32,000 bases of DNA, taken from Nitrosopumilus maritimus SCM1 (GTDB lineage: Archaea > Thermoproteota > Nitrososphaeria > Nitrososphaerales > Nitrosopumilaceae). How positions within the stretch are numbered: the stretch's first letter is position 1; every line of letters starts with the position of its first letter. Positions 1-22,218 of this stretch are shown here, in pieces. A model generated the notes under the pieces. The model saw nothing but the letters and a program-made list of their open reading frames with translations. It did no database searches and had not been told where the DNA came from. The stretch spans positions 1,613,260 through 1,645,259 of the forward strand of contig NC_010085.1 in the NCBI RefSeq assembly GCF_000018465.1, given 5' to 3'. The position numbers and the translations under genes are program-made.

Positions 1-802
1 ACACCCATTACGGGCACTCAAAAAAGCTGCAAATAAAATTGCAGATGGGAATTTTGAGGTTAGGACCAATATCAAAACAAGAGATGAGATCGCAGATTTA
101 TCTAATGCATTTGATTTGATGGCACAAAAATTACAAGAATCATTAATTGAAATTAAACAAAAGGACGAAGTCATCAAACAGCTTGAAGGAGACATGTTGT
201 TAAAGTTCTCACAACATGAAGAGAATGATTGTGTAGGAGTAATTGACATGGCAGACTCTACTAGAATATCATCAAAATTATCTGATCAAGATATTTCAAA
301 ACTATATGAAATATTTTTGAATTTTATGGCAAAGATTGTTCTTAGACATAAAGGAGAAGTCATAAAAAATATTGGAGATGCATTGATGTTCAGATTTGCA
401 AATGTGGATACCAGTAATGATGAAGAATTAAAAAATATTTTAGAATGTTGTTTAGATATGACTGAATCTCACGGTAAATTAGATGAGGAGCTCAAGAAAG
501 CAAATTTGCCTAGTTTAGATTATAAAATAAGTTTAACATACGGTCCTGTAAAAGTAGCTGAAAGTACTACTTCAAAAATTAGTGATGTTTTTGGTCCTAC
601 CGTAAATAGATGTTTTAAAATCAATTCACTTTGTCCTAAAAATAGTATAGTTGTCGGTGAAAATGTTCATAATATTTTCAGAGATTTTTCAGAATACGAA
701 TTTACAGAATTATGTATAATTGAATTAAAACAAAAATATGGTTACAATATTTTTGAAGTTAGAAGAAAAGGACTCGATGGTTTCGGGTCAAAATCTGATT
801 AA
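1..802 (+). CDS. HAMP-linker / class III nucleotidyl (adenylate/guanylate) cyclase-domain signalling protein, 5' end outside the window
   Basis: Frame 2 is open from base 2. Bases 2-115 translate to HPLRALKKAANKIADGNFEVRTNIKTRDEIADLSNAFDLM, which is HAMP-like, and run in frame into ORF 116-802. That ORF carries cyclase-type motifs VIDMADST, KNIGDALMFRF and GPTVNRCFKI. Confidence 0.7.
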   Translation, partial: HPLRALKKAANKIADGNFEVRTNIKTRDEIADLSNAFDLMAQKLQESLIEIKQKDEVIKQLEGDMLLKFSQHEENDCVGVIDMADSTRISSKLSDQDISKLYEIFLNFMAKIVLRHKGEVIKNIGDALMFRFANVDTSNDEELKNILECCLDMTESHGKLDEELKKANLPSLDYKISLTYGPVKVAESTTSKISDVFGPTVNRCFKINSLCPKNSIVVGENVHNIFRDFSEYEFTELCIIELKQKYGYNIFEVRRKGLDGFGSKSD

Positions 803-1953
803 TTTTTAGAAAAACCAAATCTAGATGCCCATCCTGATTTTTGTTTCTTTGTTGGTTTTTTTGATAGATTGTTAAGCATGTCATATGTGATTGTAAATCC
901 ATGGCCAACCATGGTTGCATCATTTGTATAATTCTCCTTGTTAGGAACAAATTCGTCTGCCAAATCTTTGATTTTCTTTGTTTTTAGATCAAATAATCTT
1001 ATTTTCTTACCATTCTCTAATTCAATTTTAGCATCACCACTCAATCCTTGTATTGAGAAATTTTCAAAGAATCGAATTGAGCCTCCTTCTTTTAGTTTGA
1101 TTACAGAATCATAGGTAAGTTTTCCTCCATAAAATAAGACCTCGCGTGCAGAAATTCTCACATCATCTTCCACATTTAGCACAATAACAGTATCAGCATC
1201 TAATGATACAGTATTGACTACATTTTCAGCAATAATTTTTCCATTTGGAGCAGAAATACTAGTTCTATGCTCTAGAATTTTATAGACGCCAACTTTACCA
1301 TCAGGATCTTCAACTCTGAATTTTCTGCCAAAAATATTTCCCACAACAACATTTCCGTTATCTACAGTAATTTGTGCCCCATTTTCAATTTTGTATTTAT
1401 TTTCCACAGGATCAAAAAATTTGAAGTCTCCTTTTGTTAGATGAATGTTTGTTTGAAATTCTCTAGTCCATGACGGACTAGTGATACTTCCTTGCATAGT
1501 AATTGGACCGTCATAAGTTAAACTTCCTGCCATGAAATTTCCTTTAATAGACAAAGCACCATTAGCTTTTCTTTCTAATTCAATTTCACCAAGAGTTTTT
1601 GAACCAAATAATCTAGTTCCAGTAGAATTTGCTCTGTTGTGTGCAGCAGCCCATTCTTCGGCTGTTTTCATTTCTTTAGATAGTTGTTGACCCAAAATCT
1701 GATTTTTTCTTCTTACATCAGCTTCAGATTCATCAGAATAAACTCTAGAGTTTTTTATTTTTTCAATATCTGTTTCGGGATATTTTTTTCCAATTTTTAG
1801 ATCTTCATATGCTTGTTTAATTTTTATGAATTGTTCATTTTCTCCACCACGATCAGAGTGATATTGAAGAGCTAATCTTCTAAATGCATCACGGATCTCT
1901 TTTTCAGTAGTCCCTTCAACAATTCCTAGGATATCATAATTACTTTCAACCAT
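799..1953 (-). CDS. J-domain (DnaJ-like) protein with a non-canonical HSD motif and a Gly/Asn/Val-rich beta-strand-repeat C-terminal domain
   Basis: 384-aa ORF with an ATG start. The N-terminus YDILGI..EIRDAFRRLALQYHSDRGG..IKQAYEDL is a J domain. The C-terminal ~240 aa resemble no DnaJ Zn-finger or CTD. The 3' end overlaps the cyclase gene by 4 nt in convergent orientation. Confidence 0.8.
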   Translation of the reverse strand: MVESNYDILGIVEGTTEKEIRDAFRRLALQYHSDRGGENEQFIKIKQAYEDLKIGKKYPETDIEKIKNSRVYSDESEADVRRKNQILGQQLSKEMKTAEEWAAAHNRANSTGTRLFGSKTLGEIELERKANGALSIKGNFMAGSLTYDGPITMQGSITSPSWTREFQTNIHLTKGDFKFFDPVENKYKIENGAQITVDNGNVVVGNIFGRKFRVEDPDGKVGVYKILEHRTSISAPNGKIIAENVVNTVSLDADTVIVLNVEDDVRISAREVLFYGGKLTYDSVIKLKEGGSIRFFENFSIQGLSGDAKIELENGKKIRLFDLKTKKIKDLADEFVPNKENYTNDATMVGHGFTITYDMLNNLSKKPTKKQKSGWASRFGFSKN

Positions 1954-2052: not shown

Positions 2053-2475
2053 CTATTTGACAACTAGTACAGGTATCTTGGTTTTGTGCATGACATAGTT
2101 TGATGTGCTTCCAAGAAATGCTTCTTTGGCGCCACCCATGCCTCTTGCACCAATTACGATCATGTCAAATTTACCTTTTTTAGCATATTTGACAATTTCA
2201 GAGCCGGTGTGACCACCACCTGTTTGATACTTGAATTTGGCGCCAGCTTTTTGGGCTTTTTGCATTGCAGGACCAATTGCTTTTACAGCCTTTTTCTGGG
2301 CGTCATCTTTCATCTTTTGTGTATATTTTATTCCTGCTGCAATAGGTAAATGAAATACGTAAAAGCCGGTAATTTCAGCACCGCTACCTTTTGCAATTTC
2401 AATTGCTCTATCTAGACCACGTGTAGCATTTGCTGAGCCATCAAGTGGAACAAGAATTTTTGAGAATTTTCCCAT
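2053..2475 (-). CDS. universal stress protein (UspA family)
   Basis: The ORF track gives 2053-2481, but that first codon is TTG. The ATG at 2475 gives MGKFSKILVPLDGS, a typical Usp N-terminus. The C-terminal G-x2-G-x9-G(S/T)-like ATP motif GARGMGG..FLGSTS and PVLVV are present. Confidence 0.85.
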   Translation of the reverse strand: MGKFSKILVPLDGSANATRGLDRAIEIAKGSGAEITGFYVFHLPIAAGIKYTQKMKDDAQKKAVKAIGPAMQKAQKAGAKFKYQTGGGHTGSEIVKYAKKGKFDMIVIGARGMGGAKEAFLGSTSNYVMHKTKIPVLVVK

Positions 2476-2583
2476 AATCAAAAAATAAAATTATTCAATA
2501 TAAGAAACAGAGGCGATTTTCAGTATTGAAAATTATGTTATAGGATATAGGTTAAATTTTTGAATTTAGTAAGAAAACAACAA

Positions 2584-3879
2584 ATGTCAGAATTAGATCG
2601 TCACATGGGACTTTTTCATCTTACCATGTATGGTGTCGGATTAATTTTGGGTGCAGGAATTTATGTATTAATTGGAGAAGCTGCTGAATTTGCAGGAAAT
2701 TCAATGTGGATTTCTTTTTTGATGGCTGCAATAGTTGCTATGTTTGCAGGATTAAGTTATGCTGAATTATCTGCATTATACCCAAAAGCAGCAGCAGAAT
2801 ACACTTTTGTAAAGAATGCATTTAAGAATAATTTTTTTGGTTTTATTATAGGATGGCTAACAGCCATTACAGGGGTCATAGTTGCAGCAACAGTTTCACT
2901 AGGATTCGGAGGGTACCTTACTCAGTTTATTGATTTACCAATTACAATTAGTGCTGTTTTTCTCATTATTATTTTATCTATTGTTAATTTTATCGGAATA
3001 AGAGAATCTGCTTGGGCAAATACCATTTTTGCATTAATTACTGCAGCAGGACTTGTTCTCATTATTTTTCTTGGTTTTTCAATGGAACCAATTGAACCGA
3101 TTGATTATTTTGAAGCACCAACCGGAATGACTGGCATAATTCTAGCATTTGTGTTAATTTTCTTTGCCTTTATTGGATTTGAAGATATGGCAAATGTTGC
3201 TGAAGAAGTTAGAAAACCAAAGAAAACAATTCCAAGAGCAATAATTTTGTCCATAGTGATAACTGGGATAATTTACATCCTAGTTTCGTTAGCATCAATT
3301 CGAATTCTGAATTGGGAGAATTTAGCTTTATCTTCAGCACCTTTAGCAGATGTTGCACATTCCGCAATAGGCGTGAACGGGAGTATCACACTTTCATTAA
3401 TTGCGCTTTTTGCTACGGCAAGTACTGTTCTAATTACACTAGTTGCAAATGCTAGAATTCTTTACGGTATGGCAAAGAGCAATTCTCTTCCTAAATTTTT
3501 GTGCAAAGTTCATCCAAAAACTAAAACTCCATGGCTAGCTGTTATTGGAACTTTAGTGGCGTCAGTAGGTTTTGCCTTTGTTGGAGATATAGTAGTTATT
3601 GCAAATATCGTCGTTTTTGCAGTAGTAATTACTTTTGCAGCAATTAACTTGGCAGTGATTGTTCTGCGATATACAGAACCAGTTTTAGAAAGACCATTTA
3701 GAGTTCCAGTAAATGTTGGAAAATTTCCAGTTCTACCATTGTTTGGATTTGGTACAACGATTTACATGGCATTACAGTTTGAAGTTGAAGTAATTCTTGT
3801 TGGATTAGTAATAATTGCAATTGGTTCTGTTTTGTATGTGATTTTAAAGAGAAGAAAAGATTTTATGAATTCTGATTAA
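2584..3879 (+). CDS. APC-superfamily amino acid/polyamine permease
   Basis: The ORF is polytopic and hydrophobic throughout, consistent with about 12 TM helices. The N-terminal helix MYGVGLILGAGIYVLIGEAA is typical of APC transporters. ATG 2584 is preferred over the upstream TTG at 2560 used by the ORF track. Confidence 0.85.
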   Translation: MSELDRHMGLFHLTMYGVGLILGAGIYVLIGEAAEFAGNSMWISFLMAAIVAMFAGLSYAELSALYPKAAAEYTFVKNAFKNNFFGFIIGWLTAITGVIVAATVSLGFGGYLTQFIDLPITISAVFLIIILSIVNFIGIRESAWANTIFALITAAGLVLIIFLGFSMEPIEPIDYFEAPTGMTGIILAFVLIFFAFIGFEDMANVAEEVRKPKKTIPRAIILSIVITGIIYILVSLASIRILNWENLALSSAPLADVAHSAIGVNGSITLSLIALFATASTVLITLVANARILYGMAKSNSLPKFLCKVHPKTKTPWLAVIGTLVASVGFAFVGDIVVIANIVVFAVVITFAAINLAVIVLRYTEPVLERPFRVPVNVGKFPVLPLFGFGTTIYMALQFEVEVILVGLVIIAIGSVLYVILKRRKDFMNSD

Positions 3880-4532
3880 TTCTTTTTAGATTTTGCAAGT
3901 GCGACAATTGCAATTGCTATACCTATTAGTCCAAAACCTATTCCTGCATAACCCATATCCATTTGTTGTGGAGTTTCTTCTAGGTTATTGACAGAATCTT
4001 TCAGATCACTAATGTCTTCGATTAATGCAGTGTGTCCATCAATCATTTGTTGTACAGTAATATCAGATGGTTCAGGGAACTCAATGTATGCTCGTTCTGC
4101 AACTTTTGGGGGATGCATTGATAAACTAATTGGAGTATCTTCAATTGTTCCCAACATATTTGCTTGATAAAATCCAGATACGGTTGGATTTACAAATGCA
4201 TAGTATTTTCCAGGAATGTTGTGATCAGGAGATAGTGGGAGTGTTATACTTTCATCTTTGTAAATTAATTGCATTTTTACTGTTTTTTTCAAACCTTCAA
4301 CTCCATTTTGAAATTCTTGTGATTCAGCACATTTGATTGGATCTGTAATTTCAGGACATGGATCCATAGGACTAACATAGAATTCAATAGCATTTGTTTC
4401 TCCTGAGACAACTGGTTCATTCATCCAACCAATCTCTACCCTATATTCCCCAACAGCATCAACAGTATGTCCATATGCAATACCAATTGAGCCTGGAATA
4501 ATTAGCAAGAGAAGCAATATGCTTAGTTTCAT
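3876..4532 (-). CDS. secreted, C-terminally membrane-anchored protein of unknown function (candidate N-terminal-His metal-binding domain)
   Basis: Signal peptide MKLSILLLLLIIPGSIGIAYG is followed directly by His. Then come a ~170-aa soluble domain with a Cys pair (CPEITDPIKC), an acidic linker, and the TM helix GIGFGLIGIAIAIVALA followed by KSKKN. Confidence 0.6.
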   Translation of the reverse strand: MKLSILLLLLIIPGSIGIAYGHTVDAVGEYRVEIGWMNEPVVSGETNAIEFYVSPMDPCPEITDPIKCAESQEFQNGVEGLKKTVKMQLIYKDESITLPLSPDHNIPGKYYAFVNPTVSGFYQANMLGTIEDTPISLSMHPPKVAERAYIEFPEPSDITVQQMIDGHTALIEDISDLKDSVNNLEETPQQMDMGYAGIGFGLIGIAIAIVALAKSKKN

Positions 4533-4603
4533 AATAAAAAAAATCTATGATTGATTTTAAAAATGTTCTATGTTAATTGGAAAGAATTTGAGCTTTGTAC
4601 CAA

Positions 4604-6049
4604 TTATGCATCAGCATACATTGAAACTTCCCAAGCTGTTGGAGTTTGAGCAAATGCAACATATTCCTTGTATTTTAATTCAGAATACACATTAAGGAAA
4701 TCTTTGGTAAAAACTTCTTCAAGGAATTTTGAATCAGATCCCAAAGAATCAAGAGCACCTTTCAAAGATACAGGTAATGAACCAATTTTGTATTCTCGTT
4801 TCTTTTCTGCAGAAAGTTTGTAGACATTTTCTTCAATTGGATCACCAGGATCAATTTTGTTTTTAATTCCATCTAAGCCTGCAAGTAATAATGCAGCTTC
4901 TAAGAGATAGATGTTTGCAGTAGGATCAGGAACTCTGTATTCTAGTCTCTTACTTTTTTCTTGATTTCTATTATACATTGGAACTCTTATTGCAGCAGAT
5001 CTGTTTGCCAATCCCCAACAAACATTGACAGGTGCCTCAAAGCCAGGAACAAGACGCTTATAGGAATTGGTGGTCGGATTGGAAATTGCACATAATGCTG
5101 ATGCGTGACTTAAGATTCCACCAATATAGTATCGTCCGGTTTGACTCATTTGTGCAAGTTCATCATTTTCATCATACATTGCATTTGAATCTCCATTCCA
5201 CAAGCTTTGATGAGTATGCATTGCTGATGCATTATCACCAAAAATTGGTTTTGGCATAAATGTTGCAACTTTATTTTTTCGTTTAGCTTTAACTTTAACT
5301 AAATTTTTTACTCCAATAACATTATCAGCCATTTGTATCATTTCATCATATACAAGATTAATTTCACATTGACCAGAAGTTGCTACTTCATGATGTTCAG
5401 CTTCAATTTTGATGCCAAAGTGGTTGTATAGATCATCACAAACATCTTTTCTAAATCCTTCAAGTGTATCTTTAGGTTGAGATGGATAATATCCTTCTTT
5501 GATGTCTATTGCAGTACTTACATTTCCTTTAGCCCAAGGTGATTCCTTAGATTCAATTGAATAGCCTGAACCACCGTACGAATGTGTTGCTGCATATGGA
5601 GATGGATAAACATTGATAGTATCAAATACAAAAAACTCTATTTCAGGTCCCCAATTGGTATGAGTAAATCCAAATTCGCCTAGTTTCTTTGATGCTTTAT
5701 GTGCAATACCTCTTGAATCTCTATTGTATCTTGAGCTTTCATCTGTGCTACCATCATACAAATCACAAAATATTCTGGCATTTGTTCTATGTCCAGGATC
5801 ATAATCAGATGGAAGAATTTTAAATGAATTTGGATCAGGCATTAAAATCATATCAGAATTATTTACTGACTTGAATCCAACGATTGAACTTGCATCTAGT
5901 TTTTCAAGACCATTAACAAAACTATTTTTATCAATTGCATAGCTTGGCATTCCAACATTATGTAATTCACCAAAGATGTCTACAAACCAAAAATCAATAA
6001 ATGCAATTTTTTCATCTTGTATAGTCTGTAATACTTGATCTGCGTTCAA
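4604..6049 (-). CDS. glnA: glutamine synthetase type I family, divergent paralog 1
   Basis: Motifs HHEVATSGQCEINLVYD, MPKPIFGDNASAMHTHQSLW, NPTTNSYKRLVPGFEAP and RLEYRVPDPTANIYL are present. The only available start in the open frame is TTG at 6049, with a stop three codons upstream. Confidence 0.9.
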   Translation of the reverse strand: MNADQVLQTIQDEKIAFIDFWFVDIFGELHNVGMPSYAIDKNSFVNGLEKLDASSIVGFKSVNNSDMILMPDPNSFKILPSDYDPGHRTNARIFCDLYDGSTDESSRYNRDSRGIAHKASKKLGEFGFTHTNWGPEIEFFVFDTINVYPSPYAATHSYGGSGYSIESKESPWAKGNVSTAIDIKEGYYPSQPKDTLEGFRKDVCDDLYNHFGIKIEAEHHEVATSGQCEINLVYDEMIQMADNVIGVKNLVKVKAKRKNKVATFMPKPIFGDNASAMHTHQSLWNGDSNAMYDENDELAQMSQTGRYYIGGILSHASALCAISNPTTNSYKRLVPGFEAPVNVCWGLANRSAAIRVPMYNRNQEKSKRLEYRVPDPTANIYLLEAALLLAGLDGIKNKIDPGDPIEENVYKLSAEKKREYKIGSLPVSLKGALDSLGSDSKFLEEVFTKDFLNVYSELKYKEYVAFAQTPTAWEVSMYADA

Positions 6050-6136
6050 TTGATATTTTTAGAAAATCAATTTACTAATGTTATCATGTAAGATAGATTT
6101 GTCAAGATGGTCAGGTAAATTAAAAAAATTTCAGAA

Positions 6137-7483
6137 TTAACTGGTTTTTGATGCTTTTATGGCATCTAATTCATCTTCAAAGAAGAATTTATCACCAAAT
6201 GCAGGTTTTAGATCATCTAACCAAATTGCATTTTCATCATATTTTGCAAAAAATGGTTCTTTAATCCAATTTGGATTTCTACCTTGCAAAAATCTCAAAA
6301 TTAGTAATTTTTCACCATTAATTTGTGTGGTTCCTACAACTTGGACTTTTCCTGGTGTTGCAGACATACTTGGTCCACGAACAGTTCTACCTAATCCACT
6401 AACAGTTGAGTAAGCCTGACTAAAGATTTCATATGCTTTGACTAAAGGCACACCAAAGTAATGTTGAGCTCCAGTATCTCTTACAACAAACATGTAGTAG
6501 GGGATACAACCAAGTTGAACTTGTTTTGTCCACATATTTGCCCACATTTCTGCATCATCATTGATATGAGCTAAAAGTGGAGATTGAGTTCTAATCTGGG
6601 CACCAGTTTTCCTTACTTCTTTGATTGCTGATTTTACAGCATTGGTAGATAATTCGTTTAGATGATTAAAATGTGCCATGAATGCAAGATGCAGACCACT
6701 GTCAGTGATCTTTTGGAAAACTTGTAACATTTCTTGGGAATCTGAATCAGTCAAAAATTTGTATGGCCAATAGGAGAGAGCTTTTGTTCCAATTCTAATA
6801 GTTTTGAGATTTGGTAATTTTGCTTCAATTAATGCATCAACATATTTTGAAAACATTTTTGCTTTCATTATCATTGGATCACCACCAGTGAAAAGAACAT
6901 CAGAAATTTCAGGGTGTTCTGAAACATATTGAACAAGTTGTTCTCCCTCTTGCATTGCAAATTTCATTTCATCCATTCCCACAAACTGTGGCCATCGGAA
7001 ACAAAAACTACAGTATGCATGGCAAGTTTGACTTTGACTTGGAAAGAATAAACAAGTCTCTTTGTATTTGTGTTGCATTCCATACAATTTTGTGCCATCT
7101 TTTAGAGTTGGAACATTTAGTTCCATCTGTCCAGCTGGATGAGGATTAAGTTGTAAGCGAATTTCATTTGCAACATTTGCTATTTCTTTTTTATCTGAAG
7201 TATTTTTTAGAGTATTTTCCATTTTTGCATAATGTTCTGGTTTTAACATTCCTCTCTGAGGAAATGTCAATACATACATTGGATCGTTTGGAATATCATT
7301 CCAATTAATTAATTGTTCAACAACATAGTTATTTGCCTTGAATGGTAAAACATTTCCCACAACTTCCATTTCAAATTGTTTTTCTTCAGAAATATTCTGA
7401 ATTTGTGGAAGATCGCGAAAATTTGATAATGTATATGATTTTAGCGAAGGGGAATCATCCCAAACTGATTCTTGATAGGTCAT
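6137..7483 (-). CDS. KamA-family radical-SAM/PLP aminomutase (lysine or glutamate 2,3-aminomutase-like)
   Basis: CHAYCSFCFRW is a CxxxCxxC 4Fe-4S/SAM motif. FTGGDPM, IRIGTK, SPLLAHINDD, IPYYMFVVRD and TPGK (the position of the PLP lysine in KamA enzymes) are also present. It has the same orientation as the GS paralog, 87 bp upstream of it. Confidence 0.85.
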   Translation of the reverse strand: MTYQESVWDDSPSLKSYTLSNFRDLPQIQNISEEKQFEMEVVGNVLPFKANNYVVEQLINWNDIPNDPMYVLTFPQRGMLKPEHYAKMENTLKNTSDKKEIANVANEIRLQLNPHPAGQMELNVPTLKDGTKLYGMQHKYKETCLFFPSQSQTCHAYCSFCFRWPQFVGMDEMKFAMQEGEQLVQYVSEHPEISDVLFTGGDPMIMKAKMFSKYVDALIEAKLPNLKTIRIGTKALSYWPYKFLTDSDSQEMLQVFQKITDSGLHLAFMAHFNHLNELSTNAVKSAIKEVRKTGAQIRTQSPLLAHINDDAEMWANMWTKQVQLGCIPYYMFVVRDTGAQHYFGVPLVKAYEIFSQAYSTVSGLGRTVRGPSMSATPGKVQVVGTTQINGEKLLILRFLQGRNPNWIKEPFFAKYDENAIWLDDLKPAFGDKFFFEDELDAIKASKTS

Positions 7484-7709
7484 TTAGTAAATAGTATGTT
7501 CACCCTTGTTAAAGGTTACAGGCTCAATACTATTAATTTTCTATAAATAATGATAATATGCCTTAACGTTTTATTCAAGAATATGAATTGGAGTAAAATG
7601 GTGACTAAATCTGGCTGAAGAAGACTTAACACAAATCTCTGTTGGTGAATTTGAAACAGTTTCTCAGTTATTAGCATCTTCGGAGTCACTTCAAATTGCA
7701 TTTACAATA

Positions 7710-9353
7710 ATGATTTTAGGAATTATTGGGATTGTTATAGGATATAGAAAATTTTCATCTTGGATAGGTTCTAAAAAGATCTATTATCAAAGACCACATT
7801 TTTCTAGATTTTTAAGAAGAGCTGTTCTGCCAGTTTTTGCAATTGCGTTAATTACAGCTATTAATATTCATGTACAAACTGGTGTACTGTTAGGAGAAGA
7901 TTTTTCACTTGGGGTTGATGAAGGAGTTTCTCCACAAGAAATTTTTGCAAAAATTCTCAATACATTCAATATTTTGGTAATAGGCTATACAATTTCACAT
8001 CTTGTTCCTATAGCTCTTACAAAATATGACAAATCTGGTTTAGAGAAAGAAGATTTTGATGCATGGTTTGAGATGAGAGGATTTATCGATGATAAAGATG
8101 GCTTGTTTCATAAACTCTACAAATGGCTTCCACCAAAAATGACTCCCGAAGACTTGACAGATGAAGAATTCAATGAAATGCTAAAATCAAAAGAAGGAAT
8201 GAAAAAACTAGAAGAGTTTAGGACTGCGAAAGGAAATCCTATTGGTGGATATGAAAAGTTAGTTGACAATCCATTTGAAGAATGGAAAAAATCAGAGAGA
8301 GGTAAATATCAGAAATATTACCAAAATTGTGTCACTGGAAATAATCAATCTGGAAGAAAATTAAGACCGGGAGCAAAACCGGATGAGATATTTCCTATTG
8401 ATATTTGGAGAGAAGAAAAAAGAACACACGGATATGAACCAATTATTCCAAGTAATCGTCCTCCAGGATATGCAAAGAAGAAAAGAGAAGGAATTCCAAG
8501 ATCAGCAAAACAAATTCTGCCAATTGGAATTTTTATTGCAACAATTTTAGGAGTTGTTGCTTGGTGGGGTGTTGATTTAATTGTATTAGCTACTGCAACA
8601 GGTGGATTAGCAATTGGTTTAGGTTTAGCATTGCAAGAGACAATGCAGAACTATTTTGCTTATATTTTGATTAGAAAAGACAAGATTTTCGTTGAGGGTG
8701 AACGAGTACAACTAGATACAGGGTATAATGGGTATGTACACAAAATCACACCTAGAGTTACATATGTTAGAGATGCATTAAACGAATCAATCGCCATAAT
8801 TCCTACAAGACAGTTAGTCAATGCACAGATTGTAAATTATACACAAGGAGTAAAGATGGTACCTGCAATTGTTGATGTAGGTGTTTCATATCTAAATGAC
8901 CCAAAACAAGTTTCAGCAATTCTTGTTAAAGTAGGAAAACGTGCAATGAAAGAAGTTGTTGATGCTAAAGGAAGACACCTAATAAGACAACGAAGATGCC
9001 CTTATCTAGACATCAATAAACCAAGTTGTGGTTGTGACAAGGATATCCATATAGACATTAATCAACCAGTGATTAGATTTAATCAGTTTAATGATTCATC
9101 ATTAGATTTCTCATTATGGGTATATGTTCGAGATTATGGAGCTCAATTCAAAACAAAAACAGACATGAGAATTATCATGTATGAAGAATTTAAGAGATAC
9201 GACATTAGAATTCCATGGCCAATTAGAACAGTTTACCAAGGAGATGAAAAACGCGAACAAGAAGAGATTGACAGACTCAAGGAACAAAGAAAGAAGGTTA
9301 TTGATGAATATGGTACAGGCGACATTGGTCGTGGAAGTGGAGAAGACGAATAG
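7710..9353 (+). CDS. mechanosensitive ion channel, MscS family, with a large charged insertion
   Basis: N-terminal TM helices are followed by the pore-helix motif TGGLAIGLGLALQETMQNYFAYI and the beta-domain (VEGERVQLDTGYNGYVHKITPRVTYVR). A ~170-aa Lys/Glu-rich insert precedes the pore-proximal helices. Confidence 0.85.
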   Translation: MILGIIGIVIGYRKFSSWIGSKKIYYQRPHFSRFLRRAVLPVFAIALITAINIHVQTGVLLGEDFSLGVDEGVSPQEIFAKILNTFNILVIGYTISHLVPIALTKYDKSGLEKEDFDAWFEMRGFIDDKDGLFHKLYKWLPPKMTPEDLTDEEFNEMLKSKEGMKKLEEFRTAKGNPIGGYEKLVDNPFEEWKKSERGKYQKYYQNCVTGNNQSGRKLRPGAKPDEIFPIDIWREEKRTHGYEPIIPSNRPPGYAKKKREGIPRSAKQILPIGIFIATILGVVAWWGVDLIVLATATGGLAIGLGLALQETMQNYFAYILIRKDKIFVEGERVQLDTGYNGYVHKITPRVTYVRDALNESIAIIPTRQLVNAQIVNYTQGVKMVPAIVDVGVSYLNDPKQVSAILVKVGKRAMKEVVDAKGRHLIRQRRCPYLDINKPSCGCDKDIHIDINQPVIRFNQFNDSSLDFSLWVYVRDYGAQFKTKTDMRIIMYEEFKRYDIRIPWPIRTVYQGDEKREQEEIDRLKEQRKKVIDEYGTGDIGRGSGEDE

Positions 9354-9392: not shown

Positions 9393-10271
9393 TTGTTGGG
9401 TAAACTATCAGTAATTTGTGGAAAATCCTCTGAAGATTTAGGAAAGAAATTAGCTAGAAAAATTAAAGCAAATTTGGTAAAATCAGAGGTAAGAATTTTT
9501 CCTGATGGAGAAAGTAAGATAACACTCAAGGGAAACATATCTAAAAGAAAATCAATTGTTGTCCAATCAATTTATCCACCTGTTGATACAAATCTTATCC
9601 AAGCATTATCATTAATCTCAAAAGCTAAAGAAACTTCATCTGAAGTAATTGTTGTAATTCCTTACATGGGATATGCAAGACAAGATAGAGAATTTTTGCC
9701 AGGAGAAATTGTTACCATGAAAGTTTTAGCAAAATTGTTCAAGGGTGCTGGTGCATCAAAACTAATTGCAGTAGATATTCACAGTTTAATTGGACTCAAA
9801 TATTTCACCATAAAATCCAAAAATGTATCAGCTGTCCCAGATTTGGCAGCATATTTCAAGAAATTGAGCCTAAAAAATCCGTTAGTTGTTTCGCCTGATC
9901 AAGGTGGAAAAGAAAGAGCAAAAGAATTTGCCAAAGAAATGGGAATAGAATTCATTGCATTACAAAAGAAAAGGGATAGAAAAACTGGTAAAGTACAGAT
10001 AAAAACAAAACAGGCTAATGTAATAGGGCGTGATCTGATTTTGGTTGATGATATGATCAGTACTGGTGGAAGCATAGTTAATGCAACAAAATTTCTTAAA
10101 AAAGAAAAATGCAAGAGAGTTTTTGTTGCATGTACACATGCACTATTGATGAATGATGCTGAAAAGAAAATAAAAAAATCAGGAGTTACAAAAATTATTA
10201 GTGCAAATACCATTCCAGGTAATACATCAATAGTTGATGTATCAAATACAATTGCAAAGGCAATAATATAA
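9393..10271 (+). CDS. prs: ribose-phosphate pyrophosphokinase (PRPP synthetase)
   Basis: Motifs YMGYARQDR, VSPDQGG and the PRPP loop LVDDMISTGGS are present. The start is TTG, with no in-frame ATG after the upstream stop. The stop overlaps the next ATG by 1 nt (TAATG). Confidence 0.9.
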   Translation: MLGKLSVICGKSSEDLGKKLARKIKANLVKSEVRIFPDGESKITLKGNISKRKSIVVQSIYPPVDTNLIQALSLISKAKETSSEVIVVIPYMGYARQDREFLPGEIVTMKVLAKLFKGAGASKLIAVDIHSLIGLKYFTIKSKNVSAVPDLAAYFKKLSLKNPLVVSPDQGGKERAKEFAKEMGIEFIALQKKRDRKTGKVQIKTKQANVIGRDLILVDDMISTGGSIVNATKFLKKEKCKRVFVACTHALLMNDAEKKIKKSGVTKIISANTIPGNTSIVDVSNTIAKAII

Positions 10272-11218
10272 TGCCAGAAAGTTTTTTTGTATTATCTAAA
10301 GAATATTTAGAGATTGCAATTGATGAGGTTATTACAATAGCAAAAACTTTTGATAGATTTTCTAAAATTAAAATTATTTCAAACTTAGTAATTATTCAAT
10401 CAAAAACTAATTGGTATGAAATTTCAAAGAAAGCAACATTTGTAAAAACATCAGGACAAATATTACGAAAAATGTCTGGATTGTTTTTAGATGAAGGAAA
10501 TTTTGAAATATTAAAAAATGCAAAAACATTCGTTTGTAGAATTATCAATTTATCTTCAAATCAGTTCGATATACCAGAATTGGAAAATTCCATGGGTGAT
10601 ATGATTTCAAAATTCTCTAATGCAAAAGTAAAACTTGAAAATCCAGACATTACAGTTTATTTGATTTTTACAAATAAAGAAAATTTTTTTGGGTTTTCCA
10701 AGATTACAAAGGAGAAAAAGAGACCAAAAAAGGCAATATCACAGCCACATGAATTAGATTGGAAATTAACAAGGGCAATGATCAATCTAGTTGGATTAAA
10801 AAAAGGAGAAACAGTATGTGATCCATTCTGTGGAACTGGTACAACGCTTCTAGAAGCTGAGTCAATGGGAATTCACGGAATTGGTCTAGATTTTGATGAA
10901 AAAATGGTTGAAATCACAAAAAAGAATCTCAAAGAAAATGGATACAAATCAAGAGTAATTCATTCAGATTTCCAAGAAATTAAGAACATGGCTGATGAAT
11001 TTGACGGTATTGTAACAGATTTCCCATATGGAAAAAATACAAAAACATCAGAAAAACCTGAAGAGATCATTAAGAAATTTGTGACTATTGTACCAAAAAG
11101 AAAGAAGATGGCTATAATGTACAAAAAGGAATTGGGAGACAAATTGAAATTAAAAGGATTAAAAAAATATCAAATCTATAGGCATAAAAGCTTGACAAGG
11201 ACAATTCTGATAAAATGA
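10271..11218 (+). CDS. THUMP-domain tRNA guanine-N2 methyltransferase (Trm-G10/Trm14-like class I SAM MTase)
   Basis: The N-terminal ~150 aa are THUMP-like. The C-terminal part has the SAM motif I DPFCGTGTTLLEA and the catalytic DFPYG (D/N-PPY-type) motif. Confidence 0.75.
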   Translation: MPESFFVLSKEYLEIAIDEVITIAKTFDRFSKIKIISNLVIIQSKTNWYEISKKATFVKTSGQILRKMSGLFLDEGNFEILKNAKTFVCRIINLSSNQFDIPELENSMGDMISKFSNAKVKLENPDITVYLIFTNKENFFGFSKITKEKKRPKKAISQPHELDWKLTRAMINLVGLKKGETVCDPFCGTGTTLLEAESMGIHGIGLDFDEKMVEITKKNLKENGYKSRVIHSDFQEIKNMADEFDGIVTDFPYGKNTKTSEKPEEIIKKFVTIVPKRKKMAIMYKKELGDKLKLKGLKKYQIYRHKSLTRTILIK

Positions 11219-12114
11219 AACTTGTATTTCTTGGAACTTCAGCTGCACAACCAACTGAGAACAGAGGATTATCATGCATATGTTTAGAGAGAGAAGGTGA
11301 AGTTCTCATGTTTGATGCAGGTGAAGCCGCACAGATTTCATATATGAAATCAGGATTGGGTTGGAATAAAAAAATGAAAATATTTGTTACACATCTTCAT
11401 GGCGATCATTGCGTAGGAATTTTAGGATTATTACAAACAATGTCTATGCAAAATAGAACAGAATCATTAGAAATTTTTGGTCCAAGTGGAATTGAAGAAT
11501 TTATTGCAGCAAACATCAAAGTTTTGAATTTTGGGTTGTCATTTCCTATTTTGATCAATACAATAAAAGATGAAAAAATTTTTGAAGATGAAAAATTTTT
11601 AATCCGTACATGTAAAGCAAATCATTCTATTATTGCATTTTCTTATTTATTTGAAGAAAAAGACAAACCAGGAAGATTCAATGTTGAAAAAGCTAAGGAA
11701 TTAGGAATACCTGAAGGTGAATTATGGAATAAGTTACAAAATGGAAATGAGATTACAGTTAATGAAAAAATAATAAAACCAGAACAAGTTTTAGGAGAAA
11801 GACGTCCAGGTAAAAAAATAGGGATTTCTGGAGATACAATGCCTACAAAAGAATTAGAAGAATTTTTTGAAGAGTGTGATTATCTTGTATTTGATTCAAC
11901 ATTTCTTGAGGCAGAAAAACAAAAAGCGCAAGATACGTGTCACTCAACTGCAAAACAAGCTGCAACAGTAGCAAAAAATGCAAAAGTAAAGAATCTGGTC
12001 TTAACACATTTTTCAGCAAGATACAGAGACGAAGTAGAACATCTAAGAGAAGCAAAAGAAATTCATGATTCAGTAATTACTGCAAAGGATCTTTTAGAAA
12101 TAGAGATCAAATGA
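11215..12114 (+). CDS. rnz: ribonuclease Z (tRNA 3' endonuclease)
   Basis: The metallo-beta-lactamase motif THLHGDHCVG, the N-terminal LGTSAAQPT..RGLS and the C-terminal LTHFSARY are present. ATGA overlaps occur at both ends. Confidence 0.9.
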   Translation: MKLVFLGTSAAQPTENRGLSCICLEREGEVLMFDAGEAAQISYMKSGLGWNKKMKIFVTHLHGDHCVGILGLLQTMSMQNRTESLEIFGPSGIEEFIAANIKVLNFGLSFPILINTIKDEKIFEDEKFLIRTCKANHSIIAFSYLFEEKDKPGRFNVEKAKELGIPEGELWNKLQNGNEITVNEKIIKPEQVLGERRPGKKIGISGDTMPTKELEEFFEECDYLVFDSTFLEAEKQKAQDTCHSTAKQAATVAKNAKVKNLVLTHFSARYRDEVEHLREAKEIHDSVITAKDLLEIEIK

Positions 12115-12839
12115 AAATGTTTGAATCAATTAAAGATCAAGTTAAGAATGCAAAAAAGATTGTTTTTGTTACTGGAGCAGGAATCTCACAAGAAAGTGGA
12201 ATTCCCACATTTAGAGGCAAAGATGGTCTTTGGAGAAACTATGATGCCATGAAATTGGCTACAATTGACGCATTTTATGATGATCCAAAATTGGTTTGGG
12301 AATGGTATAATGAACGAAGACACAATATTTTTTCAGCAAATCCAAACCAAGGGCACAAAGCAATTGCCGAACTTGAAAAATTTGCAGATGTTGTCAGTTT
12401 GACACAAAATATTGATGGATTGCATCAAAAAGCAGGCAGTACCAAAGTTTTGGAATTACATGGAAGTATTGTAAAAATAAAATGTACTGTTTGTGATTTT
12501 AGTGATGAAATAATGACAGATTTTACAGAAAATCCACCTTTATGTAAATGTGGAAGTATTTTGAGGCCAGATGTTGTTTGGTTTGGAGAGTCTCTACCAC
12601 AAGATGTTTGGCAAGAAGCAATAATTCATGCAAATCAATGCGATCTAATGATTATTGTAGGAACATCACTCGTAGTATCCCCTGCAAACACTTTACCAAT
12701 ATATGCAAAACAAAACAATGCAATGCTAATAGAAATTAATCCAGAAAATACTGAAATGTCATCAGAAATGGATCTTGTAATAAGAAACACTAGTGCTAAT
12801 GCATTACCAGAATTTGTTTCGTTATTCAAAAATTTATGA
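12111..12839 (+). CDS. cobB: NAD-dependent protein deacylase, Sir2 family
   Basis: GAGISQESGIPTFRG, TQNIDGLH, LHGS, the Zn module CTVC..CKCG and IVGTSLVVSPA are present. Confidence 0.9.
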   Translation: MKMFESIKDQVKNAKKIVFVTGAGISQESGIPTFRGKDGLWRNYDAMKLATIDAFYDDPKLVWEWYNERRHNIFSANPNQGHKAIAELEKFADVVSLTQNIDGLHQKAGSTKVLELHGSIVKIKCTVCDFSDEIMTDFTENPPLCKCGSILRPDVVWFGESLPQDVWQEAIIHANQCDLMIIVGTSLVVSPANTLPIYAKQNNAMLIEINPENTEMSSEMDLVIRNTSANALPEFVSLFKNL

Positions 12840-13574
12840 AAATATACCACTAATGTTTGAATCCGATGAATCTCCAGGATTAAAAACTGATGAAGTTACA
12901 GTTCCATATTCTTCATGTTCCACAATCATGTCTATGAAATAAGGAATTCCTGCTGCATCATTTACAGTAGTTTCAAAGTTTGAAGAGAAAAATGTTCCAG
13001 AAAAAATTTCTTCTTGTTCTGATCGAAGTATAACATTAACACTATTTGTTTTTCCACTAGAATCAGAATACTGAAGTATGATATTTTCATCAGACATTTG
13101 TTTTGTAGATAATGAAAGTGTTTCATATACTAAAGGAGAAGAATTAGTTATGACTTGGCTTGATGATGAAGGTGGATTTAATGTAGAAATTTCATTTGAT
13201 GATTTTTGTTTGTTCGAAGAACTTCCAGTAAACAAATTTTGTATAGATTCGACAGGATTAAAGTTTGAAACTTTTTCATGAATTATGTTCTGGGAAGTTT
13301 CTTTTACATCAGAAACTTCATTAGAAATTTTATCTCCTGTTTCATGAATTTCATTTGTTATAGCATCACTAGTTTTATCTACAATTTTATCAATGGACTC
13401 ATCAATTCGGTTTTCTACAGCATTTGTTGCTTTAGTACCTATATTTGATATATCATTAGTAAGAGAATCGGTTATTGTTGCAGATGTGGTAGGGAAAAAT
13501 GAATCAATTTCATTTGAGAAAATCATTCCTCCTAGAACAATTATTCCTGCAATTATGCCTAATTTTATGAACAT
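12834..13574 (-). CDS. membrane-anchored Ser/Asn/Asp-rich protein of unknown function
   Basis: An N-terminal TM helix (LGIIAGIIVLGGMIF) is followed by low-complexity periodic acidic/Ser segments and a compact C-terminal domain. There are no recognisable motifs. Confidence 0.5.
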   Translation of the reverse strand: MFIKLGIIAGIIVLGGMIFSNEIDSFFPTTSATITDSLTNDISNIGTKATNAVENRIDESIDKIVDKTSDAITNEIHETGDKISNEVSDVKETSQNIIHEKVSNFNPVESIQNLFTGSSSNKQKSSNEISTLNPPSSSSQVITNSSPLVYETLSLSTKQMSDENIILQYSDSSGKTNSVNVILRSEQEEIFSGTFFSSNFETTVNDAAGIPYFIDMIVEHEEYGTVTSSVFNPGDSSDSNISGIFS

Positions 13575-20745: not shown

Positions 20746-22218
20746 TTGAAGCATAAATTGCCCTATAAAGTCAGTCACGGAAAAGCAATTCAAGTATCAT
20801 ATTCACCTGACGAAGTTTTCTCAAGAATTCAACACGAAGGAATTCAATTCATTGATCTTCAATTTACAGGTCTAACTGGTCATTTCCACCATACCACAAT
20901 TTCTGCCAATACATTTACTCCTGAACAAATGAGAGACGGTCTACCAAAATTAGATGGTTCATCAATTATTGGATTTACAAGTATTGATGATTCAGATTTG
21001 CTTCTAAAACCTGATCCTAATACATTTGCAATAATTCCATGGATGACTGAAAACAAGACAGCTAGATTACTTTGTGATGTTTATTGGGGAGAAAACAGAG
21101 GTAGGTTATCAAGAGATCCAAGAGGAATTTCACAAAAAGCAGAAGAATACATCAAAACACAAGGATTTGATTTTAGTACATGGGGACCAGAAGTAGAGTT
21201 TTTTGTTTTTGATAAAGTTCATTGGGATGTTCTAACACCATACAAAGGACAATCTTATTCAATTGAATCTAAAGAAGCTCCATGGAATCAATCAGGTGAT
21301 GGATATCCTATGGGATTACAAGAAGGATACTATCCTAGTACACCTGCAGATACCCTTACACCATACAGAAATGAATGTGTGAATATTCTCAATAAGAATT
21401 TTGGAATTTTATGTGACAATCATCACCATGAAGTAGCAACAGCAGGACAATGTGAGATTGATATCAAGTATGATTACATGACAAATGCAGCTGATGCTGC
21501 ACAATCATACAAATACGTAATTAGAAACGTTGCTCAAAAATATGGCAAAGTTGCAACAATGATGCCAAAACCAATTGCAATGGATTCAGGTTCGGGAATG
21601 CACGTTAATGTTAGTTTATGGAAAGGAACAGAAAATGCATTCTATGATCCAGATGATGAAATTGAATTGAGCCAACTTGGAAGATATTTTTGTGGCGGAA
21701 TAATCAATCACGCAAAAGCATTATCAGCAATTTGTAATCCAACCACAAACTCCTATCACAGATTAGTTCCAGGTTATGAGGCTCCAGCATATATTGCATG
21801 GAGTTCTGGAAATCGTTCAGCAATAGTTAGAGTTCCAAAACATTTGAAAGGTAAGAATTATGCAAATCTAAAGAGACTTGAATTCAGAGCTCCTGATCCA
21901 TCATCCAATCCGTATCTTGTATTTGCAGCAGTAACTGCAGCAGGTATGGATGGAATTAAGAAGAAGATGGATCCTGGAGATGAGGTTCGTGATGACATAT
22001 TCAAGATGACAAAAAGTGATAGAAACAAGAGAGGAATTGGGGTTCTTCCAAAGAGTCTAGGAGAAGCACTTGACGAGCTGGAAAGTGATAGAAAATTCCT
22101 TAATCCAATTTACACAAATGATGTAATTGATAAAATCATTGAATTAGAAAGAAGAGATCAACGTGAGATTTCAATCAGACCACATCCACACGAATTTTAT
22201 TTGTACTTTGATGTTTAG
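20746..22218 (+). CDS. glnA: glutamine synthetase type I, paralog 2 (canonical motifs)
   Basis: HHEVATAGQCEIDIKYD, MPKPIAMDSGSGMHVNVSLW, NPTTNSYHRLVPGYEAP and RLEFRAPDPSSNPYL are present. The start is TTG at 20746 (or 20758), directly after an in-frame TGA. Confidence 0.9.
   Translation: MKHKLPYKVSHGKAIQVSYSPDEVFSRIQHEGIQFIDLQFTGLTGHFHHTTISANTFTPEQMRDGLPKLDGSSIIGFTSIDDSDLLLKPDPNTFAIIPWMTENKTARLLCDVYWGENRGRLSRDPRGISQKAEEYIKTQGFDFSTWGPEVEFFVFDKVHWDVLTPYKGQSYSIESKEAPWNQSGDGYPMGLQEGYYPSTPADTLTPYRNECVNILNKNFGILCDNHHHEVATAGQCEIDIKYDYMTNAADAAQSYKYVIRNVAQKYGKVATMMPKPIAMDSGSGMHVNVSLWKGTENAFYDPDDEIELSQLGRYFCGGIINHAKALSAICNPTTNSYHRLVPGYEAPAYIAWSSGNRSAIVRVPKHLKGKNYANLKRLEFRAPDPSSNPYLVFAAVTAAGMDGIKKKMDPGDEVRDDIFKMTKSDRNKRGIGVLPKSLGEALDELESDRKFLNPIYTNDVIDKIIELERRDQREISIRPHPHEFYLYFDV

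Follow-up and report, generated by a model that had tools for sequence, protein, structure and literature searches.

What does a small gene cluster of Nitrosopumilus maritimus SCM1 do, in which a radical S-adenosylmethionine (SAM) aminomutase stands next to a glutamine synthetase (GS) and a mechanosensitive channel? The cluster lies in a stretch of 32,000 nt (contig NC_010085.1, positions 1,613,260 to 1,645,259; ~33% G+C), which in its whole length is called the window here. Its genes encode a KamA-like aminomutase, a GS paralog (GS1) downstream of it on the same strand, and a divergently transcribed channel of the MscS family (Table 1). The original prediction, made from the DNA alone, had read them as a candidate beta-amino-acid osmolyte module. 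Marine ammonia-oxidising archaea (AOA), to which the organism belongs, rank among the ocean's most abundant cells. Beta-glutamic acid was reported to exceed every other identified metabolite of N. maritimus SCM1 in abundance, its level being estimated at 730 mM, and beta-glutamate was found to rise with depth in the North Pacific (Heal et al. 2021, PMC8269262). According to a paper from 2024, AOA without ectoine genes still have no identified alternative osmolyte (PMC11428151). In the searchable literature we found no AOA gene linked to beta-glutamate, no AOA glutamate or lysine aminomutase, and no Nmar locus tags for the genes described here.

Our reading is that the aminomutase is a glutamate 2,3-aminomutase of a new clade that works in an osmotic or solute module with the MscS channel, and that GS1 is an active ligase. 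We give this whole statement a probability of about 0.6, and hold its part on the aminomutase and the osmotic setting with more confidence than the whole. The aminomutase is very probably an enzyme of osmolyte or solute biosynthesis, with glutamate to beta-glutamate as its best-supported reaction, and it is the best candidate for the beta-glutamate-making enzyme of Nitrosopumilus. The original prediction is borne out to that extent, that is, for an aminomutase in an osmotic or solute module that is likelier of the glutamate than of the lysine type; its amidation step from beta-glutamate to beta-glutamine fares less well.

Family and fold of the aminomutase

Among solved structures the sole sequence match of the aminomutase is lysine 2,3-aminomutase (LAM) of Clostridium subterminale (2A5H, E 6e-19). 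The AlphaFold2 model, built on a 31-sequence alignment (pLDDT 93.4, pTM 0.91), likewise has 2A5H as its top Foldseek match (E 5e-19, TM 0.60/0.66, 431 columns); other radical-SAM enzymes, at ~1e-5, trail it by some 14 orders of magnitude. With LAM/AblA (C. subterminale 2A5H; ablAB of Methanosarcina and Methanococcus) the window protein shares the fold over its whole length, the CxxxCxxC site, the GGD motif, the Arg that binds the carboxylate and the Lys that carries pyridoxal phosphate (PLP). It differs from LAM in its sequence (19% identity in the structural alignment), in having Arg/Ser for Asp293/Asp330, and in lacking the C-terminal Cys-rich region, there being no Cys after residue 326.

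The protein stays below the cut-off of every NCBIfam model of the group. It scores 129.9 bits on the KamA family model TIGR00238 (cut-off 199.2), 109.5 on AblA (TIGR03820; 525.4), 105.5 on EpmB (TIGR03821; 369.3), 98 on arginine aminomutase (600), 97 on AblA-like-2 (396) and 85.4 on Eam (TIGR04368; 650). The KamA-family label that it had been given holds for the fold and the cofactor motifs and fails at the curated family cut-off, and the protein, below both family and equivalog cut-offs, is by its sequence a divergent outlier of the KamA family. Clustering with the EpmB enzymes of EF-P beta-lysylation, an outcome that the original prediction had named as one that would speak against it, was not seen. 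An EpmB-type role was rejected on the score just given, on the absence of the lysine Asp pair and on the archaeal host, and an epmA-like neighbour was seen in none of the loci examined.

How widely is this protein distributed? A search of 1.84 billion cluster representatives gave 326 below 1e-30, many of them full-length at 30-63% identity, which indicates a sizeable separate subfamily. A scan of one genome per species gave >600 matches, the gene being common to hundreds of mostly marine bacterial species at ~60% identity; the loci analysed here are the best 80 of these >600. Nineteen are from Nitrosopumilaceae (Nitrosopumilus, Nitrosarchaeum, Cenarchaeum and Nitrosopelagicus) at 69-86% identity, and the other 61, two of them from Thermoplasmatota archaea, are mostly bacterial at 57-69%. 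The bacterial carriers are Chloroflexota/Dehalococcoidia (including an ALOHA marine metagenome-assembled genome, MAG), Ignavibacteria, Thiohalobacter/Thioalkalispiraceae, Persephonella, Bacteroidota (Balneolales, Saprospiraceae, Marinifilum, Carboxylicivirga and Rapidithrix) and others. To Nitrosopumilus proteins, among them that of Ca. N. koreensis AR1, the window protein shows 94-97% identity. Orthologues from Nitrosotalea, Nitrosotenuis and a MAG labelled Nitrososphaera sp. are 69-82% identical to a deep-branching AOA member. The cysteine motif (C154-x3-C158-x2-C161) is present in all 80 orthologues. In a neighbour-joining tree, computed without support values, the AOA form one clade nested among bacteria beside the main Chloroflexota group, and the closest relatives of this clade include most of the Chloroflexota sequences that carry a riboswitch (see below). 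Fold, motifs and clade membership are established by these comparisons, and the sequences describe a new KamA clade, uncharacterised so far, with tight conservation in Archaea and Bacteria alike. One homologue of 882 residues (P0128) has its aminomutase domain at residues 443-869, fused to an N-terminal ~440 residues of unassigned nature.

Specificity residues and the likely substrate

The substrate of the enzyme has to be read from the residues that line the pocket. In the HMMER alignment to 2A5H the region around the PYY motif is ungapped (PYYIYQCD in LAM, PYYMFVVR in the window aminomutase), so that LAM Asp293 corresponds to R335. The same alignment pairs LAM R134 with R163. If it is extended without gaps from SG to the PLP-site GK, a stretch of 18 residues in either protein, LAM D330 would fall at S372 and K337 at K379. 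We take R134 of LAM to bind the alpha-carboxylate and K337 to bind PLP, and D293 and D330 are said, after work of Lepore et al. in 2005, to bind the epsilon-ammonium group of lysine. Comparison with LAM at these two positions, which the original prediction had proposed, gives D293 to Arg and D330 to Ser, the Asp pair of the lysine enzymes being absent. R163, R335, R366, R369, S372 and K379 are invariant in 79-80 of the 80 orthologues (R335 in all 80), and the GGD motif is invariant as well. Since replacement of Asp by an invariant Arg reverses the charge, an acidic side chain is suggested and lysine or arginine would be incompatible. On these residues the sequence suggests an acidic substrate and makes a glutamate-type enzyme more likely than a lysine-type one.

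The reaction predicted here is that of Eam of Clostridium difficile and of the methanogen glutamate 2,3-aminomutase, both of which form beta-glutamate. Reportedly, from work of Ruzicka and Frey in 2007, the C. difficile enzyme has Lys/Asn at the positions of LAM D293/D330. Against this pair the window aminomutase agrees in having a basic residue, Arg, at the Asp293 position and differs in having Ser rather than Asn at the other. The methanogen enzyme is said, after Tunckanat et al. in 2022, to have an N-terminal extension of ~160 aa, which the window protein of 448 aa lacks; both glutamate enzymes were compared by model score or description only. A 608-aa relative with an N-terminal extension (P0232) provided no link to the methanogen enzyme, its own relatives being bacterial "hypothetical proteins", none of them from Methanococcus. 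An osmolyte role is reported for the methanogen enzyme (Tunckanat et al. 2022, Biochemistry 61:1077), and early NMR work had argued against an aminomutase route in methanogens (PMC1224877). AblA serves the production of a beta-amino-acid osmolyte in archaea, as is proposed here for the window aminomutase, and ablAB is salt-induced (PMC1224877).

Could the enzyme instead be a lysine-type 2,3-aminomutase with beta-lysine as its product? We regard this as very improbable. Close homologues are named "lysine 2,3-aminomutase" in public records, LAM is the only solved relative, and a tandem Na+/cyclic di-AMP (c-di-AMP) riboswitch precedes "ablA" in Dehalobacter (White et al. 2022, PMC9337991). However, the public names are automatic annotations, the AblA score is 109 against 525 bits, and the invariant Arg would repel the ammonium group of lysine, the second Asp having been replaced by Ser. 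The partner gene of the beta-lysine pathway was also sought. As the original prediction had noted, no ablB-type acetyltransferase is adjacent: there is no GNAT family among the Pfam matches of the open reading frames (ORFs) scanned around the cluster and along the window, where the ORFs at 10271-13574 were read by eye only, and none among the Pfam matches of 100 immediate bacterial neighbours. In having no ablB partner among the scanned neighbours, the gene differs from ablA.

Proposed mechanism

By analogy with LAM, a [4Fe-4S] cluster on C154/C158/C161 would cleave SAM to give a 5'-deoxyadenosyl radical. PLP would sit on K379 before substrate binding and would then hold the substrate as an aldimine, with R163 holding the alpha-carboxylate and R335, in place of the Asp that binds the lysine ammonium, holding the side-chain carboxylate. 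L-glutamate would be converted in this way to beta-glutamate, an anionic solute, inert in metabolism, which together with K+ would fill the Nitrosopumilus cytoplasm. On osmotic down-shift this pool may be released through the divergent MscS channel as its valve. GS1, in ancient coupling with the aminomutase, would be active as an ATP-dependent ammonia ligase and might either amidate part of the beta-glutamate to zwitterionic beta-glutamine or be an isoform adapted to a beta-glutamate-rich cytoplasm.

Osmotic context of the aminomutase gene

The homeostasis of K+ and compatible solutes is governed by c-di-AMP signalling. A c-di-AMP riboswitch (RF00379) is found upstream of the aminomutase gene, on the same strand, in all eight Chloroflexota/Dehalococcoidia orthologues scanned (60-97 bits; gathering score 38), and ends ~100-250 nt before the start of the aminomutase alignment. 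The Rfam scan gave no riboswitch in 25 non-Chloroflexota loci and none in the window. One Chloroflexota locus (L050) has two such riboswitches back to back, at 4465-4599 (-) and 4719-4859 (+), one facing the aminomutase gene and the other an opposite-strand gene of 425 aa (3126-4403). White et al. (2022, PMC9337991) count both ablA and eam among the genes under the control of Na+ riboswitches. The bacterial aminomutase orthologues resemble the c-di-AMP (ydaO/yuaA) and Na+ riboswitch regulons described there (PMC9337991) in standing behind c-di-AMP riboswitches, as further genes for osmoprotectants do. Unlike in those regulons, the riboswitch was found among the Chloroflexota members only, and the archaeal genes, which gave no match in Rfam, have a promoter of the TATA type.

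In the archaea it is the neighbouring genes that point to solute balance. An MscS orthologue lies beside the aminomutase gene, nearly always divergently, in 18 of the 19 Nitrosopumilaceae loci including the upstream flank. In Nitrosotenuis aquarius a different, shorter MscS is encoded on the same strand three genes downstream of the aminomutase; after it come a gene for a small RAM-domain protein, the GS1 orthologue and a Na+/H+ exchanger. Four AOA lineages have orthologous Na+/H+ exchangers close to the aminomutase, and in two bacteria distant homologues of these adjoin it; ClC chloride channel genes follow it in two Bacteroidota. The gene arrangement recurs across distantly related AOA and is more than chance, and the synteny, like the riboswitch association, is established; the substrate, the product, the physiological role and the specificity of GS1 are what we infer. 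The non-marine AOA cluster also holds a DUF432 protein and a stand-alone RAM/AsnC_trans_reg protein of 75-90 aa (N. aquarius, L202 7691-9560; L204 3184-3411). Homologues of the RAM protein occur within ~6 kb of the aminomutase in several Nitrosopumilus loci, and there is none in the window.

A second link between a solute gene and a channel exists in the same organism. The ect cluster of N. maritimus is said, after Widderich et al. in 2016, to be co-transcribed with mscS. In that hyp-ectABCD-mscS cluster, too, a compatible-solute gene is reported to be linked to an MscS-type safety valve (Widderich et al. 2016). The aminomutase-MscS pair differs from it in its chemistry and in the divergent direction of its genes, and whereas ect genes are present in few AOA, this pair occurs in almost all of the Nitrosopumilaceae loci examined.

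The bacterial neighbourhoods, within the best 80 of >600 matches, are variable, and neither MscS nor GS accompanies the aminomutase there. The only recurrent neighbour is an uncharacterised AspAT-like class I/II aminotransferase of ~430-450 aa that falls below all NCBIfam cut-offs. It was found at 13 loci, 12 of them bacterial and one from a Nitrosopumilus MAG in which it sits between MscS and the aminomutase (the 13 include L006 8528-9886, L026, L030, L035, L038, L040, L041, L056 and L071). A stand-alone bacterial gene with such a neighbour agrees with a route of a single step that starts at a central dicarboxylic amino acid. In five Bacteroidales loci (L051, L061, L067, L069 and L073) the aminomutase directly follows, on the same strand, a cell-elongation gene pair, which encodes a protein of 605-618 aa that by eye resembles penicillin-binding protein 2, together with one of the RodA family (Pfam FTSW_RODA_SPOVE). 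We found no usable literature on beta-glutamate in Persephonella or Thermotoga.

Several points weigh against a glutamate 2,3-aminomutase in an osmotic module. The substrate assignment draws on one charge-reversed residue, as read from the sequence, and on circumstantial context; the residue pair is Arg/Ser instead of the Lys/Asn reported for Eam, and the Eam score is poor (85 against 650 bits). Synteny within the AOA is partly inherited, and hence is partly not independent evidence. Cell-wall genes are also under c-di-AMP riboswitches, and in three Chloroflexota loci (L024, L025 and L050) a LysM/M23-like gene comes after the riboswitch-controlled aminomutase. The product of that gene, judged by eye, resembles a LysM/M23-type peptidoglycan hydrolase of ~380 aa; it is gene +1 or +2 on the same strand and is possibly co-regulated. 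Orthologues are also present in low-salt AOA (Nitrosotalea and Nitrosotenuis), so that the gene is not a marine-only trait. Beta-glutamate may be a general cytoplasmic anion of the order rather than a purely marine adaptation or, alternatively, the function of the aminomutase may be broader than osmoprotection.

The same points bear on a second question, namely whether the enzyme acts on another substrate, such as 2-aminoadipate or another acidic or polar amino acid, alanine (to give beta-alanine for CoA) or a protein- or peptide-bound residue, with the osmotic-gene neighbourhood then reflecting a different stress or a cell-envelope role. The low-salt carriers, the riboswitches on cell-wall genes and the LysM/M23-like gene of the three Chloroflexota loci would agree with this, as would the Ser at the D330 position, where Asn is reported for Eam, and a clade that is about equally far from every characterised KamA subfamily (85-130 bits). 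We nevertheless consider it unlikely. The invariant R163, R335 and R369 fit a dicarboxylate, beta-glutamate is the metabolite found at very high level in N. maritimus (PMC8269262), the only recurrent bacterial neighbour is the AspAT-like aminotransferase, and the strong conservation across domains, at 57-67% identity, argues for a simple metabolite. Glutamate remains the preferred substrate in our reading. The aminomutase then represents known chemistry in a known type of role, as with ablA and eam; what is new are the distinct clade, the different specificity pocket, the partner set of MscS and a GS paralog, and the ecologically weighty host group.

The glutamine synthetase paralog

The main question about GS1 is whether it acts on alpha- or on beta-glutamate. 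GS1 scores 513.6 bits on the GlnA model TIGR00653 (cut-off 429.15), which the second paralog of the window, GS2, passes too; the two are 44% identical. Residues are numbered here after Salmonella GS, in which N264, G265 and R321 are glutamate-binding, H269 coordinates a metal and H271 is in contact with an ADP phosphate (PMC5403932). The GDNASAMH loop reported for GS1 was confirmed (FGDNASAMHTHQS): in place of the canonical N-G-S-G-M-H it reads N-A-S-A-M-H, with the changes G265A and G267A, to which G51A in the DGSS loop of the neighbouring subunit is added in this genome. The original prediction had called this the nucleotide-binding loop, which is right for H271 and its contact with the ADP phosphate but not for N264/G265, which bind glutamate, or for the metal ligand H269 (PMC5403932). 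It had also taken the GS2 loop as the usual form. The sequence is present as described (MDSGSGMHVNVS); however, it is not canonical, since DSGSGMHVN has Ser for the glutamate-binding Asn264 and Asn for His271. With N264S and H271N in GS2, and G265A and G267A in GS1, both AOA paralogs deviate in the substrate loop.

GS1 is otherwise well preserved. It keeps the metal ligands E129, E131, E212, E220, H269 and E357, the residues R321, R339, R344 and R359 with the E327 flap, and the ammonium-site residues D50, S53, Y179 and E327. Its 12 genome-locus orthologues share the metal, catalytic and ammonium-site residues with it, and since GS1 keeps them it is predicted to be an active ammonia-using ligase. 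Described at first as a divergent GS paralog, it is so to a mild degree only: its score lies above the GlnA equivalog cut-off and no catalytic residue is lost. The changed loop is equally stable: NASAMH is invariant in 12 of 12 genome-locus orthologues, and among deeper orthologues (55-67% identity) it reads NASAMH in Nitrosotenuis and the "Nitrososphaera sp." MAG and NASALH in Nitrosotalea. In one Nitrosopumilus-like MAG (L005 11440-12700) the GS1 orthologue is split into two ORFs of 176 and 250 aa, which may be a pseudogene or an assembly frameshift. A polyamine or amine ligase was considered for GS1 and rejected, as the ammonium-site residues are kept and the scores are far below the cut-offs of the gamma-glutamylputrescine and type III GS models.

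GS1 lies directly downstream of the aminomutase in 12 of the 20 AOA species loci. In a metagenome scan for the GDNASAMH coding pattern, in which 71 loci had flank enough to be judged, the aminomutase is immediately upstream of GS1 on the same strand in 61. The gap between the two genes is 20-22 bp in Nitrosotalea and the "Nitrososphaera sp." MAG, and in Nitrosotenuis the pair survives the insertion of DUF432, MscS and RAM-domain genes between its members. The KamA-GS1 pair, as judged from these sequences, is ancient and tight. Other observations argue against the coupling. Eight of the 20 AOA species loci have no GS1 at the locus, among them those of Nitrosopelagicus and of single-cell genomes from the open ocean; GS1 stands alone in unrelated contexts at ten of the 71 metagenome loci; and no GS is found at any of 60 bacterial aminomutase loci. 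Retention in soil and freshwater genera and absence from the sampled open-ocean lineages is, moreover, the opposite of what is expected for a high-salt solute, and speaks against a beta-glutamine role of GS1.

Three readings of the enzyme have to be compared. The one that we favour, by a little better than an even chance, is that GS1 is an ordinary second GS for nitrogen assimilation, perhaps under different regulation or insensitive to beta-glutamate, which makes no beta-glutamine and whose adjacency to the aminomutase reflects inherited gene order or the co-regulation of two glutamate-consuming enzymes. The GlnA score and the complete catalytic and ammonium sites agree with this, as do the distribution just described, from the sampled open-ocean lineages and the bacterial loci without it to the metagenome loci where it is alone, and the T-run after the aminomutase stop codon, which suggests separate transcripts here. 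It explains less readily why the adjacency persists at 55-67% GS1 identity and through the Nitrosotenuis rearrangement, or why two invariant Gly to Ala changes stand at the glutamate-binding position, and a GS of Methanohalophilus that makes beta-glutamine provides a precedent for the contrary (PMC1224877).

That GS1 amidates beta-glutamate, with beta-glutamine as the product, is, in our estimate, a minority hypothesis. Its model is the type-I GS with which Methanohalophilus portucalensis forms beta-glutamine out of beta-glutamate (Robinson et al. 2001, cited after PMC1224877), and GS1 would do likewise. The M. portucalensis enzyme is a general GS with unusually high beta-glutamate activity, whereas GS1 is an accessory paralog with a fixed Ala-Ser-Ala loop and a predicted role. 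An equally good reading of the same features is a GS isoform tuned to a large beta-glutamate pool. The supplements of the metabolome paper (PMC8269262) contain no beta-glutamine data.

A more far-reaching version, which we hold to be doubtful, joins several claims. The Arg/Ser-pocket aminomutase and GS1 would form an ancient two-gene pathway specific to AOA, with GS1 as the first dedicated beta-glutamate:ammonia ligase and the Ala-Ser-Ala loop re-tuning the glutamate site for the 3-amino isomer. The pool would then shift between anionic beta-glutamate, paired with K+, and zwitterionic beta-glutamine, with MscS as the valve, and the clade, governed by c-di-AMP riboswitches in SAR202-type Chloroflexota and carried by many marine Bacteroidota, would be a major source of deep-ocean beta-glutamate.

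Significance

The locus offers a testable candidate, as a single aminomutase gene is conserved from Nitrosotalea to Nitrosopelagicus. If it is a glutamate 2,3-aminomutase as we propose, it would represent a third, sequence-distinct clade of such enzymes with a different specificity pocket, and would explain a large intracellular pool of carbon and nitrogen in the dark ocean. It would also provide a marker gene for beta-glutamate production in metagenomes, and would correct the widespread annotation "lysine 2,3-aminomutase". GS1 is a natural experiment on how a GS may discriminate or switch between alpha- and beta-glutamate.

The MscS gene, spacers and promoter

The MscS protein has the atypical architecture that had been noted for it, as confirmed by Pfam and hydropathy, and its gene is divergent from that of the aminomutase. 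A single N-terminal transmembrane (TM) segment is followed by a hydrophilic insert of ~200 aa, a pore-lining TM region (265-309), and beta and C-terminal domains. It matches PF00924 at 30.1 bits (cut-off 20.2) and PF21082 at 29.5 bits (cut-off 21), and its residues 264-412 match MscS/MscK/YnaI structures; channel function is predicted. An open, conserved reading frame extends 33 codons further upstream from the ATG at 7710. Other Nitrosopumilaceae start MscS with ATG GCT GAA GAA, where the window reads CTG GCT GAA GAA at 7611-7622. Non-canonical initiation, a recent mutation of the start codon or an error in sequencing may account for the CTG at 7611.

The aminomutase-MscS spacers of 16 Nitrosopumilaceae loci were aligned with that of the window, and the only conserved non-coding block is CTGTAACCTTTAACAAGGGT. 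It contains a TATA-like core, TTTAACAA, ~22 nt upstream of the aminomutase ATG, a distance that implies a leaderless transcript or one with a very short leader. The flanks of the block form an imperfect palindrome (ACC...GGT), which may be a putative regulator site overlapping the promoter. A run of seven T directly follows the aminomutase stop codon in the spacer to GS1 and is a candidate archaeal terminator; with it, the aminomutase and GS1 may be separate transcription units in this genome. A scan with models of sigma-70 promoters and intrinsic terminators, which are not applicable to archaea, gave no more matches than shuffled sequence.

Other features of the window

The ORFs of both GS paralogs, the aminomutase, MscS, the APC permease and the Usp protein are all where the original prediction had placed them (ORF reading, Pfam/NCBIfam), and the aminomutase-GS1 gap is exactly of the length that it gave, with the two genes co-oriented.

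Table 1. Features of the aminomutase locus in the window (positions counted from its first nucleotide)
Feature	Position	Strand	Remarks
Usp protein	2053-2481	-	Pfam
APC permease	2560-3879	+	Pfam
Membrane/secreted protein, unannotated	3876-4532	-	218 aa; no Pfam match
GS1 (first GS paralog)	4604-6049	-	481 aa; Pfam Gln-synt_N + Gln-synt_C
Aminomutase-GS1 spacer	6050-6136	-	87 bp
KamA-like aminomutase	6137-7483	-	448 aa; CxxxCxxC at C154/C158/C161
Promoter-like element CTGTAACCTTTAACAAGGGT	7502-7521	-	Conserved in aminomutase-MscS spacer alignment
MscS-family channel	ORF 7710-9353; conserved start position 7611	+	547 aa (ORF); Pfam MS_channel_2nd + MS_channel_3rd
GS2 (second GS paralog; comparator, outside the module)	20746-22218	+	Pfam, NCBIfam

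The APC permease and the Usp protein had been counted with the cluster. They are indeed near it; the linkage does not hold, as only few Nitrosopumilus loci have them, and they are probably incidental to the module. The 218-aa protein has TM segments at residues 1-24 and 191-216, read as a predicted signal peptide and a TM anchor at the C-terminus. In Nitrosopumilus it often comes downstream of GS1 or of the aminomutase, and it is found at ten of the 20 AOA genome loci; nothing indicates that it is functionally a member of the module. Its mature N-terminus is predicted to begin with His (AYG|HTVD), which is reminiscent of copper-binding proteins with an N-terminal His. At the beginning of the window, 116-802 (+) encodes a class III adenylate/guanylate cyclase-like protein of 228 aa, and 799-1953 (-) a protein of 384 aa with only an N-terminal DnaJ domain, which is a frequent neighbour of the cluster in Nitrosopumilus.

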